Positions 10,255-51,139 of a stretch of 64,000 nt of DNA are shown here, piece after piece. The stretch's first letter is position 1, and each line of letters opens with the position of its first letter. The stretch is from positions 288,001 to 352,000 of the IMG/VR virus record IMGVR_UViG_3300015615_000196. One strand, given 5' to 3'. The translations under genes and the position numbers were made by a program. The DNA comes from a virus (lineage: Duplodnaviria > Caudoviricetes). The notes below the pieces were generated by a model. That model ran no database searches and had not been told where the DNA came from. It saw only the letters and a program-made list of their open reading frames with translations.

Positions 10255-10261
10255 GGAAGAA

Positions 10262-10540
10262 AGTAGCAGGAATGTGGCGGCTTATGAACAGTCGCATTGC
10301 TTTTCGTGGCATTTCGGACATCCCGAAGTAATGGGTTAATAGTCCTCATGTTCTCCACTGTGGTTATATCACCACATTCCCCCTTACGTTATCCTTGTCC
10401 CTGTTAAGACAGGTGAGCCATTGCTGGCAAGTTCCCTTATCGGTTTGCTACAGTCCTGTGGTGTGCAAGAGCACGTTTCAGGGCGTGGGATGAAAAATTC
10501 GCCCTACAGTGTCAGTGGATTGTCTACCAATCCTCTACCT
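10262..10540 (-). ncRNA. unclassified multibranched structured RNA(s)
   Basis: stems GGATTG/CAATCC, AGGGCG/CGCCCT, GTGC/GCAC, GTAGCA/TGCTAC, GCCA-GCAA-TGGC, CCTGT/ACAGG, GGAATGTGGTG/CGCCACATTCC; GC-richer than flanks; no credible ORF. Confidence 0.6.
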
Positions 10541-10550
10541 ATTTTTCAAG

Positions 10551-10621
10551 TGGATACTGGATGATTCGAACATCCGTTAACCCCCTCAATGGGGCCGTTC
10601 TAACCGCTAAACTAAGTACCC
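10551..10621 (-). tRNA. atypical tRNA-like gene (non-canonical anticodon loop ATTGAG; possibly Gln-TTG derived)
   Basis: acceptor GGGTACT/AGTATCC, D-arm GTTT-AGCGGTTA-GAAC, T-arm GGATG-TTCGAAT-CATCC; anticodon arm GCCCC-ATTGAG-GGGGT. Confidence 0.7.
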
Positions 10622-10626
10622 GTTTT

Positions 10627-10795
10627 CGGGAAGGTTCGGAGTTCCACACGAACCTCTCCATACCTAATTCTGAATGTCGTGTGCGCTTCACAGCTACTCC
10701 CCTTGGATTAATGGTTTTCGATGGCCAATGGCTCCCCGCACAACGAGTACAAAACTTCAAACGGTATGGCGCATTCATACTATGCTACCTTTCCC
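10627..10795 (-). ncRNA. tRNA-shaped RNA with a 98-nt structured insert in the anticodon loop
   Basis: GGGAAAGG/CCTTCCC acceptor, GCAT/ATGC D-stem, CCATACC/GGTATGG stem enclosing 98 nt, GTTCG/CGAAC T-like arm. Confidence 0.7.
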
Positions 10796-10797
10796 TG

Positions 10798-10865
10798 ACA
10801 CAACTTCACGCACTGCGTAACCAATGCATCATGGCCGATTTACGTCAACCACTTCGAAGTTATGT
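10798..10865 (-). ncRNA. three-way-junction RNA with complementary (kissing) loops
   Basis: P1 ACATAACTTC/GAAGTTGTGT, P2 TGGTTGA/TCGGCCA, P3 ATGCATTG/CAGTGCGT; loops CGTAAA and GTTACG; G-U pairs work only on the minus strand. Confidence 0.65.
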
Positions 10866-10868
10866 TTG

Positions 10869-10980
10869 TGGGAAGGGATGGACTTGAACCACCAACCTCT
10901 CAGCTTTGCGATCTGTAAAGATGCATACCATTGCATTTGATTTCCGCATCACTGAGTTCTCTAACTTGAGATACCTTCCC
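10869..10980 (-). ncRNA. tRNA-shaped RNA with a 48-nt insert in the anticodon loop
   Basis: GGGAAGG/CCTTCCC-A acceptor, TCTC/GAGA D-stem, CTCAG/CTGAG stem, GGTGG-TTCAAGT-CCATC T-arm. Confidence 0.8.
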
Positions 10981-10983
10981 ATT

Positions 10984-11095
10984 TCAGGAGCGTCATGCGG
11001 TCATTGATTGTGTGGAGGCTTTAGCCTAATTTCGATGCATGAACACCTCACCACTAAAACATTTCTGCGTTTCAATCAACAACCCTTTCTCCTGA
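10984..11095 (-). ncRNA. unclassified ~110-nt rod-like RNA with possible pseudoknot
   Basis: TCAGGAG/CTCCTGA, GTTGATTG/CAATCAAT, GTGG/CCAC, AGGCT/AGCCT; TCATGC/GCATGA cross-pairing. Confidence 0.55.
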
Positions 11096-11103
11096 CCTTT
11101 TAT

Positions 11104-11209
11104 ACTGCTAAACATCACCGATGTGTTCATTCCATAACAGATACTGTTGCTCGATCAAAGACTTGGTTTAGTGCCAAAATTGCTCGACAGTACTCGATGT
11201 CTGTACAGT
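11104..11209 (-). ncRNA. unclassified structured RNA
   Basis: ACTG/CAGT, AGACATC/GATGTTT, GTACTGT/ACAGTAT, TTGG/CCAA nested stems. Confidence 0.5.
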
Positions 11210-11220
11210 TGGATTTCTTG

Positions 11221-11292
11221 CGCGGATACCCGGATTCGAACCGAGGTCAAGGGATTTAGAGTCCCCTGTTCTGACCACTAAACTATATCCAC
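11221..11292 (-). tRNA. amber suppressor tRNA (anticodon CTA)
   Basis: GTGGATA/TATCCGC-G acceptor, GGGGA-CT-CTA-AA-TCCCT anticodon arm, CTCGG-TTCGAAT-CCGGG T-arm. Confidence 0.9.
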
Positions 11293-11303
11293 GTATGTTC
11301 CTT

Positions 11304-11329
11304 TATACGAAAAAAGGGGACGCAAGGTT
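11304..11329 (-). promoter_or_regulatory. phage promoter AACCTT-N14-CGTATA driving the ncRNA cassette
   Basis: motif ends 12 nt before the 5' end of the suppressor tRNA. Confidence 0.75.
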
Positions 11330-11335
11330 GTTACC

Positions 11336-45063: not shown

Positions 45064-45762
45064 CATGGAGCAAACATTCGATCAAGTTTGTCGCAACATT
45101 GATTGGGGCAAAATGGAAAAGAGCAGGGTCACCGTAAAGAACTTGGTGAAAACAAATCCTTCCCTGCAATATCTGGAAAAGTTTCTGGAACAAATTGCTG
45201 ACTCAGCAGTTGACGTGCACGGAATGCCATTGTCCAGTATTTATCCAAGAGCAACGCTTCAAGTAAAAGCGCACGGCAACAGGAATTAACCATGACCAAC
45301 AAAGTGATAGTCGAGTTCGTAGAGGTTAGCCCTCTCGGAGAAGTTGAAGAGAAGCCCATCATGGCGTATGAGGCTCCATTCTATCCTTCATACCATGAGG
45401 GAGAAACTATCACACTGGAAAAAGAAGACGGCTTCATCGAAGACGAAGAAGATGACGATAAAGCCCACCACTACACAATCGTAGACATTCACCATTCTGT
45501 ACGTCAGCAAATCCGTAGCGAGTACTCTGTAAAATCGCAGGTGAAGATGAAGGTTTTCCTTCGTAGAAGCTAATGACTGCACGACCCAAAAAAACTGAAT
45601 TGATTCGTCTCATTCAGACATTGAAGCTACCAGAACAAAGGTATCGAAGCCTTCAAAAGATCGGTCTTACCAAATACAATAAAACCCAATGGGCATGGAA
45701 TGAGGGGCATTTGAAGCTATTAACTCACGAAACCCTGTTCAATATTTTCCAAGAACTTTCCA

Positions 45763-46940: not shown

Positions 46941-46966
46941 AACCTTTCAATACGTTTGTACGTATA
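46941..46966 (+). promoter_or_regulatory. phage promoter AACCTT-N14-CGTATA driving ncRNA locus 2
   Basis: motif match; no credible CDS follows before the terminator. Confidence 0.75.
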
Positions 46967-46991
46967 ACTACATATGATCAAAACCCTGCCG

Positions 46992-47065
46992 GACAGTCGA
47001 GTGTTAATGGCCAGCACGGTTCCCACTGACGGGAGCAAGTTTGAGTTCGAATCTCATGTCAGTCG
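46992..47065 (+). tRNA. atypical tRNA-like element (loop ACTGAC; imperfect acceptor)
   Basis: D-arm GTGTT-AATGGCC-AGCAC, GTTCCC-ACTGAC-GGGAGC, TGAG-TTCGAAT-CTCA; acceptor 5 of 7 paired. Confidence 0.6.
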
Positions 47066-47068
47066 TTA

Positions 47069-47488
47069 GAAGGTAGGTGAGATCATATAGCAGTGACCAT
47101 TGGCAATTTGGTGTAACAGAAGCACATCGGTTTCCCCGAAGGAGTGAGTGTTGCGATTCTCACGATTGCCGGAAAGATGGTCACGAAGAAAAGCCCTGAT
47201 AATGCAATGGCTGTCACCAGAGCAAAACAGGCAGTAGGGTTGACAGACTCTATGGGGTAAAAATGACCCCGTTGGCGCATAGGGAGATAGGCTCGAAAGA
47301 GTACGGCCTGACAAAATTCGGGTAAGATCAACCCGGAGACTTGCGACAATGAAACCCTACAGGGTGCAAGAACACGGTGAATAGACTATACGGTAACCAT
47401 CCCGACAACAGCCGTGATCCCTGTATGCGCGAATACGTTGGTCGTATACGTGACAGGTGGCCTCATATGCCCCTTCGAAAACGCCTAC
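47069..47488 (+). ncRNA. large (~420 nt) ornate structured RNA with embedded tRNA-like cloverleaf
   Basis: closing GTAGGTG/CGCCTAC; GTGACCAT/ATGGTCAC enclosing the cloverleaf 47102-47170; GTAGGGTT/AACCCTAC; CTGTCAC/GTGACAG; CTCTATG/CATAGGG; TTCGGGT/ACCCGGA; CACGGT/GCCGTG. Confidence 0.75.
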
Positions 47489-47489
47489 T

Positions 47490-47537
47490 AATCCCCTGCG
47501 GAAGGTCGCCAAAATGACCTGAAACAGGGGATTTTTT
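47490..47537 (+). terminator. intrinsic terminator
   Basis: AATCCCCTG...CAGGGGATT followed by a T-run. Confidence 0.75.
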
Positions 47538-47563: not shown

Positions 47564-47589
47564 AACCTTGTCCTGCCCACCCCCGTATA
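47564..47589 (+). promoter_or_regulatory. phage promoter AACCTT-N14-CGTATA for rIIA
   Basis: motif match. Confidence 0.75.
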
Positions 47590-47626
47590 ATCACACAAGA
47601 AACAACAACAACTAAACAACAGAAAC

Positions 47627-49822
47627 ATGAAAGTAGAAGTAGCTTACAACGATCAGGAAGTAGAAATCGCAGGTGTAGAGAAAACACAGGCTTTCGGCTT
47701 CTCAAAGGATGCAGAAGAAATGATCTTCTCGATGTTCACCAAGAACATCTATTCCAACCCCATCGGCTCTATCGTCAGGGAAATCACTTCAAACTGCTTT
47801 GACTCCCACAAGGAAGCAGGAGTGAATGAGCCAGTTATCGTTCGCCTCTCCCGTGAAAACAATGACTACTACATTTCCTTCGTTGACGTTGGAATGGGTA
47901 TGTCCCGCGAACGCATCACCAAAGTTTATTCAAAGTATTTCGAATCAACCAAGCGTAACGACAACAATCAGATCGGTGGCTTCGGTATCGGTGGCAAGAC
48001 TCCCCTTGCGTATGCCGAAAGTTTCTTCCTGATCACGACATTCAATCACATCCGTTACACGTACAACATCCGCAAAGGAAAAACCTCTCCGGTTCTTGAC
48101 TTGCTGGACACAAAGAAGACCAACGACCACAATGGCACGGTCATCAAAGTACCTGTACGTTCCTCTGACATTTCCAGCTTCGAGCGTGAGATCAACCGTC
48201 AGTTGTATTACTTCGAGAACGTTATCTTCGAAGGCTTCTCAACGACAGTTCAGAACGACTACAAGATCATCGAAGGCAAAACGTTCCTGTATCGTGGTAA
48301 CAGCTACAACTCTGCAATGCACATTTGCTTGGGACGTGTTGCTTACCCTATCGATTACAGTGTGTTTGAAAACCTGTACTCGAACGACTACAACGTTCCG
48401 GTTGCCATCAAGTTCAACATCGGTGAGATCAACGTCACTGCTTCTCGTGAAGCAATCGACTACACTCCTGCAACGAAGAAGTTGATCGTGAAGAAACTTC
48501 AAGAAGCAAAGGCTGAATTGGTTGGTATGCTTGACAAGCAACACGAAAAGATCAGCACTCTCGAAGAGTACTATCGCATGGAAGATTCAGCAGCAGTTCT
48601 TTGGTTGACATCAGATCGCATGGTGAACATCAACTCCCTGCTCGAAGGTCGCAGACAGCCGATCATCTTCAAGAAATTGGATTGCTTGGCATTGCCTTCT
48701 CAATCAGAGATCATCCACCAGTTCTACAACGTGTCGATGTTCGGCAAGAAAGGTCGCAGAGATCACACTTGGGACAAGTCACTGAAAAGCGTAGGCAATG
48801 AGCACGTATACTTCGTGAACGAAGAAGAAGAAATGCCCCGGAAGAAGAATGCGTACATGAAGCAAACGTTCAAACACTTCTACGCAATCGGTCGTAAAGA
48901 CTTCGCAATCTTCGAAACGAAAGCGTTGATCAAGAGACTGACTCCTGAGAAAAGCATCCAGCCTTCAAAGACTATCTTCAAGCAGTTCCGCTTGCTGAAA
49001 GATGAAGTCTACACGATGGTTGAACGCTTGGCAAAGAAGTACGCCAGCATCACAGTACCAGATGGTTTCGTTGCAACACAATCACGTTACAACCCGAACT
49101 ACGAACTTCCTGTAACTTACGATGGACGTTACGGCTTCGACAAGACCCGTCTCAAACTTGCAGAGATAGCTGCTTCGAAAGCAACAATCTTCTACACGGA
49201 CACGGATGGTGAAGGTAGCATGAAGTGGGCGCAGAACCAATACGAAACGCTCTTCAAACCTGAAAGCGATAAGAGGTTCGTCCTGTTCAACAGTGACTAT
49301 CACTCTAAGCCTGTACGCTTCATCATGGTATCAAAGACGAACTTGAAGTTCATCCAAGAACTTCCGAACGTGAAGCCACTGACTGAGTTCAACAAGATGT
49401 TGCTCCGCAAGCGTGGTGAAGTGATCAAGTACATCGAGAAGCGCAAGTTTAGCGAACGCTACGGCAATCAGCACTCACTGTTCCTCAACGAACCTTTGTT
49501 CCGCACGTTGGACACTGCATACTCTCAAGTGTTGAGCAAGCTGAACAAGAATGCAACGTACTACAACGGTGTGCCGAACTACTCACTGAACATCGATCCT
49601 GAGTTCTCTCCTTTGCTCAAGGTCATGAACATCAAGTATGACACGGTTCAATACGCAGGTGCTGACTTGCTTGACAAAGTTGAGCAGAAAATTGTGAAGA
49701 ACGGAAAGTTGAAATTCGTGCGAATCAACAACGATTTCGACCCTTCTGACAAAAACAGTCACTACGGCACGGAAGATATTGACAACATTCTGCAACTTTT
49801 GAAAGCAGTTTACGTAAAATAA
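47627..49822 (+). CDS. rIIA: rIIA-like protein (GHKL/HATPase N-terminus)
   Basis: IYSNP...REITSNCFDSH, D.G.GMS, STK..N..IGGFGIGGK; paired with rIIB. Confidence 0.85.
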   Translation: MKVEVAYNDQEVEIAGVEKTQAFGFSKDAEEMIFSMFTKNIYSNPIGSIVREITSNCFDSHKEAGVNEPVIVRLSRENNDYYISFVDVGMGMSRERITKVYSKYFESTKRNDNNQIGGFGIGGKTPLAYAESFFLITTFNHIRYTYNIRKGKTSPVLDLLDTKKTNDHNGTVIKVPVRSSDISSFEREINRQLYYFENVIFEGFSTTVQNDYKIIEGKTFLYRGNSYNSAMHICLGRVAYPIDYSVFENLYSNDYNVPVAIKFNIGEINVTASREAIDYTPATKKLIVKKLQEAKAELVGMLDKQHEKISTLEEYYRMEDSAAVLWLTSDRMVNINSLLEGRRQPIIFKKLDCLALPSQSEIIHQFYNVSMFGKKGRRDHTWDKSLKSVGNEHVYFVNEEEEMPRKKNAYMKQTFKHFYAIGRKDFAIFETKALIKRLTPEKSIQPSKTIFKQFRLLKDEVYTMVERLAKKYASITVPDGFVATQSRYNPNYELPVTYDGRYGFDKTRLKLAEIAASKATIFYTDTDGEGSMKWAQNQYETLFKPESDKRFVLFNSDYHSKPVRFIMVSKTNLKFIQELPNVKPLTEFNKMLLRKRGEVIKYIEKRKFSERYGNQHSLFLNEPLFRTLDTAYSQVLSKLNKNATYYNGVPNYSLNIDPEFSPLLKVMNIKYDTVQYAGADLLDKVEQKIVKNGKLKFVRINNDFDPSDKNSHYGTEDIDNILQLLKAVYVK

Positions 49823-49855: not shown

Positions 49856-51139
49856 ATGAATAACATCATCGGAACGAAAATCGGTAACTTGGTGAACCTT
49901 GTGATCGATGGTAACGCATGGCAAAAGACCTTCGAGTCACAAGATGAAGCAAACGCCTTCTTCAAACTGATCCACAAGGCACGTACAGGTGATAAGGATG
50001 CATTCAACGAACTTCTCACCGCCCTGAACCGCAGGTATAAGACCGTGATCAACGGCATCCTTGAGAAAGATTCAGACGAGAACTACTACCTCAAAGGTAT
50101 CGACATCAAACTTCCCTCTCTCCTTGCAGACACTTTCGTTGACTACATTGAGAACGATTTCCCGGTGGATGCACTGGTGAACTTCTGGAAGTTGCTCCTG
50201 ACCAATCCTGATCCCCGTGTTCGCGAAGACCTGTTCAAGTTCCTGCAAGAGTACAACTTCGCCATCACTGACAACGGTTACTTCGTAGCCTACAAAGCAG
50301 TGGAAGCGAAGAACACAACGGGTGAAGACCTTGCTGCCTTCGTCTCCAATCAGTACTTGAAAATCAAGAAGTGGAAGAAGAACCCGGCCAACTACGAAGT
50401 TGCCCGTATCTTGACGGAGATCACCGAAGAAGTTGAGAACCCTGCCTACGAATACTTCGGAGACATCGATGATGAAGATGACGAGAACTACGGACAGGAA
50501 GACAACGGTGAAGATGAATTCATCGAAGAGACACGTAACGAGTATTCGTTCAAACTCTTCCCTGCCGGAGAAATCAATCTGGAAGATGACCAACAACTTG
50601 AAAAAGTGTATGGTAATCTCTCTGACCTGTTCAAGAACATCGACTCACTGATCGACAACCGTACCGTGTACCAGTCGAAGCACAGTGGCAAGAACGGAAA
50701 GGTTGAGCAAGTGTTGGGTGTGCCTGTGAAGATGGAACGCATCGAAACAAACGTTGACCCGAAAGTTGAATGCTCGTCTGGTCTGCACGTTGGAAGCACC
50801 AAGTACGTTGAGAATTTCAGCAGTGGTGATGATCGCATCCTTCAAGTTCTCGTCAACCCTGCACACGTTGTTGCAGTGCCTGAGTACGACAACTCAAAGT
50901 TGCGCACCTGTGAGTACTTCCCTTACGCAGAACTTGGGCGCAAGGAAGACAGCAAAGAGTTCGAAGTTCTGGAATCACCTTACTTCGAAGACGAGTACAT
51001 GAAGTACGAGAAGGCTGACCTTGAAGCACAATTGGCAGATGTTCAACCCGGACGTGAAGTGTCGGAGGATGCCAAGGTGAACTACAAGAAGATTCTTGAG
51101 GAAAGAGTAATCTACCTTGAGGGTGCATTGAAAAAGTAA
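49856..51139 (+). CDS. rIIB: rIIB-like protein
   Basis: FWKLL..NP, ITDNGYFVAYK, CSSGLHVG, VNPAHVVAVP.YD..KLRTCEY. Confidence 0.88.
   Translation: MNNIIGTKIGNLVNLVIDGNAWQKTFESQDEANAFFKLIHKARTGDKDAFNELLTALNRRYKTVINGILEKDSDENYYLKGIDIKLPSLLADTFVDYIENDFPVDALVNFWKLLLTNPDPRVREDLFKFLQEYNFAITDNGYFVAYKAVEAKNTTGEDLAAFVSNQYLKIKKWKKNPANYEVARILTEITEEVENPAYEYFGDIDDEDDENYGQEDNGEDEFIEETRNEYSFKLFPAGEINLEDDQQLEKVYGNLSDLFKNIDSLIDNRTVYQSKHSGKNGKVEQVLGVPVKMERIETNVDPKVECSSGLHVGSTKYVENFSSGDDRILQVLVNPAHVVAVPEYDNSKLRTCEYFPYAELGRKEDSKEFEVLESPYFEDEYMKYEKADLEAQLADVQPGREVSEDAKVNYKKILEERVIYLEGALKK

Follow-up and report, generated by a model that had tools for sequence, protein, structure and literature searches.

A structured phage RNA with a nested tRNA-derived arm and a putative self-pairing loop upstream of rIIA

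To our knowledge, only few natural RNAs that form multimers from RNA alone have been described, and OLE, GOLLD and ROOL are without an established function. The loop L9.3 of OLE alternates between GGCC, GAUC and AGCU and forms the intermolecular bridge B3, as seen by cryo-electron microscopy (Kretsch et al., PMC12286853). Kissing interactions of ROOL (B4) and GOLLD (B7) that had been predicted from covariation also proved to be intermolecular (PMC12286853), and self-assembly has been reported for short phage motifs, too (bioRxiv 2026.07.01.735769). Here, we analyzed a locus at positions 46,941 to 47,537 of a stretch of 64,000 nucleotides (nt), referred to as the window, to which coordinates refer unless stated otherwise and which covers positions 288,001 to 352,000 of the IMG/VR virus record IMGVR_UViG_3300015615_000196 (Duplodnaviria; Caudoviricetes). 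A first-pass annotation had suggested that the locus encodes either a new large non-coding RNA class with a built-in tRNA module or a diverged RNase P. The former part is borne out by the lack of an Rfam match, the existence of homologues and strong covariation, whereas the latter is not. It is nearly certain that the locus specifies a real structured RNA, and judged from its sequence it is best treated as an uncatalogued family of structured phage RNAs, which would be a variant of the ornate self-assembling kind.

Homologues, core fold and the palindromic loop

Homologues were identified by taking relatives of the adjacent rIIA gene and reading the DNA upstream of it, which means that the linkage to rIIA is biased by the search route. 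This yielded nine homologues, all in related jumbo phages and upstream of rIIA. One distant member (L319) was found with a covariance model of the 5' half of the core (R1); it lies ~40 kb from rIIA in a 366-kb phage and has two cloverleaves in tandem, and its kissing sequence is wholly different. With the present phage included, the RNA occurs at 10 of 12 distinct loci with an rIIA of at least 50% identity. The two remaining loci (L071 and L316), a clade that falls within the carriers, have another non-coding element, conserved over ~170 nt and with a canonical-looking T-arm, in the same slot upstream of rIIA (L071:4735-4900 and L316:1715-1880). Nearly all records searched contain one copy of the RNA per genome, as expected of a gene. 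In one member, a LAGLIDADG-family gene is located immediately upstream of the RNA (L069:3620-4444, minus strand). A blastn search against cultured phages gave nothing useful, exact patterns of the RNase P-like word, the P6-P7 region and the 3' module had no match in viral contigs, and a tight core pattern had none in metagenome contigs.

The conserved part of the RNA is a core of ~165 nt (47189-47354). In a plain MAFFT alignment of ten cores with 50-86% identity, 89.6% of the cells are paired and 27 of the 52 pairs show changes on both sides. The covariation score amounts to 0.418 compared to 0.213 in shuffled alignments, none of which (0/500) reached the observed value, and to at most 0.123 in slid controls. 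Since the structure was derived from the same sequences, it is the double changes and not the pairing percentage that carry weight. The pairs include 53 G-U but only 7 A-C cells, which favors an RNA on the plus strand. Folding of the single sequence gave z-scores of -2.83 (plus strand) and -2.31 (minus strand); this evidence is modest, and the case thus rests on the homologues. The core consists of four helical domains that lie side by side, namely P1-P2, P3, P4 and the P7 junction. The predicted features of the core and its 3' flank are as follows:

47191-47232, plus strand: P1-P2, with an invariant AA, the pairing CCUG/CAGG (47195/47228), an A-rich internal loop, and P2 carrying loop L2 (CUGUCA, 47211-47216); from covariation and invariant columns
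47234-47253, plus strand: P3, whose loop L3 (UGACAG, 47241-47246) is predicted to kiss L2; from covariation and a loop permutation test
47254-47270, plus strand: P4, to which other members add a variable stem; from the covariation alignment
47271-47350, plus strand: P7 (47271-47279/47342-47350), closing a junction of the variable P5 (47281-47309) and P6 (47317-47323/47331-47337); from compensatory changes
47326-47329, plus strand: palindrome GAUC in loop L6, a predicted intermolecular kissing site; a palindrome occupies this position in 10 of 10 members
47375-47414, plus strand: optional 3' module of 40 nt, nearly identical in L070 and L318; present in three of ten members, otherwise divergent

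The invariant bases concentrate in P1 and its internal loop. The P1 pair G47193-C47232, which is G-C in six members and A-U in four, spans a bulge of one nucleotide that is U in the other members and C in this copy. Two crossing pairings had been proposed before, GCCCT/AGGGT (47361) and CTGTCAC/GTGACAG (47450). Both are complementary in this phage, but the homologues have no partner at an equivalent place. The conserved partners are instead CCUG/CAGG and the loops CUGUCA/UGACAG; the earlier pseudoknots were wrong, and the true one is the L2-L3 kiss. The palindromic loop and a stand-alone form of the core had both been missed.

The palindrome of four bases in L6 lies 4-6 nt before GGAGA in all ten cores and reads GGCC in five, GAUC in two, GCGC in two and AGCU in one of them. 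When mapped onto the rIIA tree as a proxy, the word shows at least three changes, each of two substitutions. The loop has thus been kept self-complementary in 10 of 10 members through covariation of adjacent bases, which is a trait as in OLE, GOLLD and ROOL. It is not the by-product of a perfect inverted repeat, since the flanking bases are unpaired in L002, L005 and L315. As adjacent bases of a loop cannot pair within one chain, the pattern points to an L6-L6 contact between molecules. Kretsch et al. reasoned in the same way on L9.3 of OLE (PMC12286853).

Pattern scans of phage contigs, in which loose patterns gave mostly chance matches that were filtered by descriptor or model, revealed a form of ~100 nt that shares the P1 sequence and usually also the order of the four helices. 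A second pair of patterns left both loops unspecified, and the loops were nonetheless found to be complementary, with entirely different sequences. Among eight types of kiss, the cognate loop pairs surpassed all but 2 of 40,320 permutations. The small core is usually present once per genome and has no match in Rfam. In L343 it makes up the entire spacer between two tRNA-Arg genes, beginning 2 nt past the first and ending ~1 nt before the second; in L159 it begins 5 nt past a tRNA, and in L333 and L336 it abuts the next one. Elsewhere it follows a tRNA or a likely promoter, or, in several cases, begins at or near a stop codon. The spacing to tRNAs is variable, and many copies have no tRNA nearby. 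One contig has two tandem small cores, the second of which appears to lack the kissing loops (L372:13117-13420). In L053, L083, L087 and L241, degenerate tRNA-like elements with a T-arm and long inserts were observed just 3' of the small core.

Transcription unit and tRNA-like modules

The window belongs to the complete genome of a jumbo phage (362,603 bp, with direct terminal repeats) that has 61 tRNA genes and a T4 gp23-like capsid protein; the latter is without a close cultured relative. The RNA locus occupies the gap that separates short open reading frames (ORFs) from rIIA/rIIB. The following features flank the core:

46941-46967, plus strand: phage promoter AACCTT-N14-CGTATAA (AACCTT 46941-46946, CGTATAA 46961-46967), a genome-wide motif
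46992-47064, plus strand: degenerate tRNA-like leader with a canonical T-arm (47042-47056), a 6-nt anticodon-like loop and two mismatches in the acceptor; optional
47093-47184, plus strand: P0, an 8-bp helix (47093-47100/47177-47184) presenting the nested cloverleaf; an equivalent helix of other sequence occurs in homologues
47102-47170, plus strand: nested, putatively tRNA-derived four-way junction with a 7-bp acceptor, D-arm, variable arm lacking an anticodon loop, and T-arm with a 10-nt loop; by descriptor and by eye
47493-47537, plus strand: intrinsic terminator with inner hairpin 47504-47519; seen in about six of ten members
47564-47590, plus strand: separate promoter of rIIA (47627-49822) and rIIB (49856-51139); given as context

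The promoter motif occurs 31 times in the genome compared to 0-2 times in shuffled sequences, and the identical motif or a close variant precedes 10 of 10 rIIA-linked members; transcription would start at about 46973. A sigma-70 scan did not detect the promoter at 46941-46967. TAnnTTTG, present in some homologue promoters, only hints at a Bacteroidota host. The terminator is found once within the genome. With the terminator ending at 47537 and a promoter of its own for rIIA, the unit would be ~565 nt long. Each of the ten rIIA-linked members forms a unit between a promoter of the same kind and a terminator, with variable inserts of 0-150 nt between core and terminator. The order of promoter, tRNA-like leader, RNA and terminator described in the first-pass annotation could be located part by part in the sequence. 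The proposed boundary of a ~420-nt RNA did not hold up, since no conserved bounding helix is seen and the units span 350-590 nt. Protein coding, which had already been doubted, was rejected: the longest ATG ORF has 65 amino acids, the length of the core is not kept modulo 3, and no frame stays open in all members.

The 8-bp helix and the full cloverleaf are present exactly as previously claimed. The cloverleaf alone is not significant, as the descriptor is also met by 15 of 200 shuffled sequences. It was recognized by descriptor in 7 of 11 members, 19-38 nt before P1, and by eye in 8 of the 10 rIIA-linked ones, while L068 and L317 have only remnants. The sequences of the acceptor, D and T stems differ among members with the pairing retained; the anticodon arm is free in length (5-nt loop in this copy), and the T-loop has 5-13 nt among the homologues. 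The cloverleaf differs from a tRNA, which has a 7-nt anticodon loop, canonical D- and T-loops and a free 3' end, and it is enclosed in P0. Because it has neither CCA nor a free end, it cannot decode. The leader, which is enclosed here by the helix 46972-46979/47081-47088, has similar counterparts in L002, L005 and L318 and is thus found in four of ten members. Neither the leader nor the nested cloverleaf was called by ARAGORN or Rfam (RF00005).

Other tRNA-like elements of the window lie on the minus strand in a region of ~1 kb free of ORFs (10260-11330). Here, positions 11221-11292 hold an amber (CUA) tRNA and positions 10550-10621 a tRNA whose anticodon loop is abnormal, and a tRNA-like unit with a T-loop of 10 nt lies at ~10630-10700; the TGT-starting loop of this length, to which the T-loop of the cloverleaf had been likened, is indeed present near 10640. 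Wholesale recoding is not evident, since TAG still terminates 16 of 247 long ORFs.

Proposed self-assembly and alternative explanations

From the behavior of the loops, we lean towards a homo-oligomerizing, trans-acting ornate RNA. It would be a stable non-coding RNA, modular in build, and would function in the manner of OLE, GOLLD and ROOL, its compact core assembling with copies of the same RNA. L6 would pair with L6 of a second molecule in a two-fold contact and give at least a dimer, and this dimer is the part that we regard as probable. The L2-L3 kiss could either lock a single chain, with the A-rich loop as a hinge, or join chains head to tail, two arrangements that covariation cannot separate. 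If head-to-tail L2-L3 contacts were combined with the L6 contact, a ring-on-ring cage might result, although a closed cage appears rather doubtful. The cloverleaf is most simply read as a domesticated tRNA that once stood beside the small core and was absorbed, in an order of events that we infer; this is suggested by the small core adjoining real tRNA genes in other phages. Having shed the anticodon loop and the 3' end, the nested copy would have become a structural or protein-binding arm. During infection, the assembly might then serve as a trans-acting scaffold or sponge. The family would be an independent case of a multimer predicted from covariation alone. The natural L6 variants offer a ready test of specificity, as GAUC, GGCC, AGCU and GCGC should not cross-pair. 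It would also illustrate a possible path by which an ornate RNA grows, from a ~100-nt core next to tRNA genes to built-in tRNA arms and optional 3' modules.

Several points weigh against self-assembly. The product of the shuffle odds over the four L6 words is 4e-4, but it was computed post hoc, when the pattern had already been noticed, and from ten related sequences only. The palindrome comprises just 4 bp. It may be an add-on, since it is absent from the small core and not evident in L319. The RNA is not fixed upstream of rIIA, as L071 and L316 carry a different RNA there. Furthermore, the cluster of invariant bases in P1 and its internal loop would be more typical of an active or binding site than of a scaffold.

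The strongest rival, which we nevertheless consider unlikely, is that the ~100-nt core represents a ribozyme of a new kind, either self-cleaving or processing tRNAs, which separates neighboring tRNAs or messages like a theta ribozyme. At the present locus, the cut would fall beside the nested tRNA arm. Such a ribozyme would make sense of the compactness of the pseudoknotted core, whose invariant bases surround a bulged U and an A-rich loop, of the copies next to tRNAs, foremost the one that fills the spacer in L343, and of those that start at or near stop codons. However, the spacing to tRNAs is loose, with many copies far from any tRNA, and the single copy in this genome lies 36 kb from the nearest of its tRNA genes. 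A small RNA freed by the processing of flanking tRNAs would explain L343 equally well. Neither an HDV-like topology nor G8/G12 of the hammerhead is seen on inspection, and L6 is left unexplained. Theta ribozymes provide a precedent for ribozymes adjacent to phage tRNAs (PMC10879173). Combined with self-assembly, the core could represent a new catalytic class with an RNase P-like bulged-U metal site that processes tRNAs of phage operons and that here became fused to a tRNA, gained the palindrome and self-assembles; we consider this combination improbable. If the core did cleave, it would add a class of ribozymes.

Similarly improbable is a monomeric tRNA mimic that serves as a ligand or decoy for a protein of the host or phage, such as a tRNA-targeting defense enzyme, a synthetase or a processing nuclease, with the core as a stabilizer. 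The retention of the cloverleaf in 8 of 10 members, its doubling in L319 and the lack of a free 3' end for charging or cutting would fit such a role. So would the neighborhood of rIIA/rIIB, which in T4 counter Rex exclusion. On the other hand, no recognition surface is conserved, since the anticodon arm and the T-loop vary freely. L068 and L317 retain only remnants of the cloverleaf, and the link to rIIA is that of the search route, L319 having its copy far from the gene.

A cis-acting leader or attenuator governing read-through into rIIA/rIIB is very improbable. The RNA stands directly upstream of rIIA in most members and has a terminator at its end. In contrast, the members read have a separate promoter past the terminator, L002 and L005 have other ORFs in between, the distance between core and terminator varies, and the core also occurs beside unrelated genes.

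Hardly credible, finally, is an RNase P-like ribozyme that has been highly rearranged and carries its own substrate. The likeness to bacterial and archaeal RNase P RNA (RF00010, RF00011, RF00373) consists of a helix with a bulged U, an AAGUCC-like word (AA-G-U(bulge)-CC, as in CR-I), an A-run that precedes the opposite strand as in CR-V, and a tRNA-shaped domain just 5' of it. This short helix is the only P4-like part. It closes locally, 35 nt downstream, and does not form a long-range P4; its partner strand is followed by purines, and neither the UUA of CR-V nor a conserved CR-IV word is found in the core. Four of the 10 members have A as the R of the CR-I-like AA-R-U-CC, and the present copy has C in place of the bulged U. 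A second RNase P word, noted earlier at 47352-47370, falls into the 3' part that varies among members; it is specific to this phage and absent from the homologues. RNase P models gave no match to the locus at E<=10, yet the model test detects a separate minimal RNase P RNA of the phage at genome positions 45280-45460 (minus strand; L377:481-661) through a weak RNaseP_arch match at E=1.1e-4, which argues that the locus is not RNase P. The words of CR-I, CR-IV and CR-V are all found in this RNA, its specificity domain is very short, and the genome search with RF00010 missed it.

Comparison with known RNA families

A cmscan of the locus and homologues against Rfam 15, at gathering thresholds and at E<=10, returned only junk matches. 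In the literature, no description of the family was found; the ~10,000 candidate viral RNA models of PMC10690425 were not part of this comparison, and there was no match among 200 of the 408 supplements of PMC8040213. Mappings by eye to hammerhead, HDV-like, pistol, TPP and group I RNAs all failed. For a group I intron there is neither a match to RF00028 nor an S element after the GACUA word. The double pseudoknot P1-P2-P3-P1.1-P4 of HDV-like and theta ribozymes is not formed, as the covariation is that of two kissing hairpins. With theta ribozymes, i.e. minimal HDV-like ribozymes, the small core shares the habit of a small pseudoknotted phage RNA adjoining tRNA 3' ends; it differs in being a two-hairpin kiss as opposed to a nested double pseudoknot and in its variable tRNA spacing. 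The phi29 pRNA and the manA and EGFOA motifs are likewise phage-linked or short natural RNAs that multimerize via loop contacts, but there is no sequence or model match to them, and a link to packaging genes is not seen.

GOLLD (RF02032) had no match at the locus at E<=10. A true GOLLD at genome positions 191172-191593 (plus strand; L072), with tRNA genes closely downstream, matched at 159.8 bits and served as positive control; thus, the locus is not GOLLD. ROOL (RF03087) gave no cmscan match at the locus and two homologues, nor in the genome, where the search had no positive control; the same applies to OLE (RF01071) at the locus and homologues and in the genome, again without positive control. 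OLE resembles the present RNA in being ornate, in its length of ~600 nt and in the loop that switches among GGCC, GAUC and AGCU at the dimer bridge B3, whereas the present RNA is encoded by phages and has an arm derived from a tRNA, and its core has a small form that stands alone. GOLLD and ROOL form D7 and D4 cages, respectively. Like the present RNA, they are large modular phage RNAs with kissing loops that are tied to tRNA islands, from which the present RNA is set apart by its core of ~165 nt and another order of helices.
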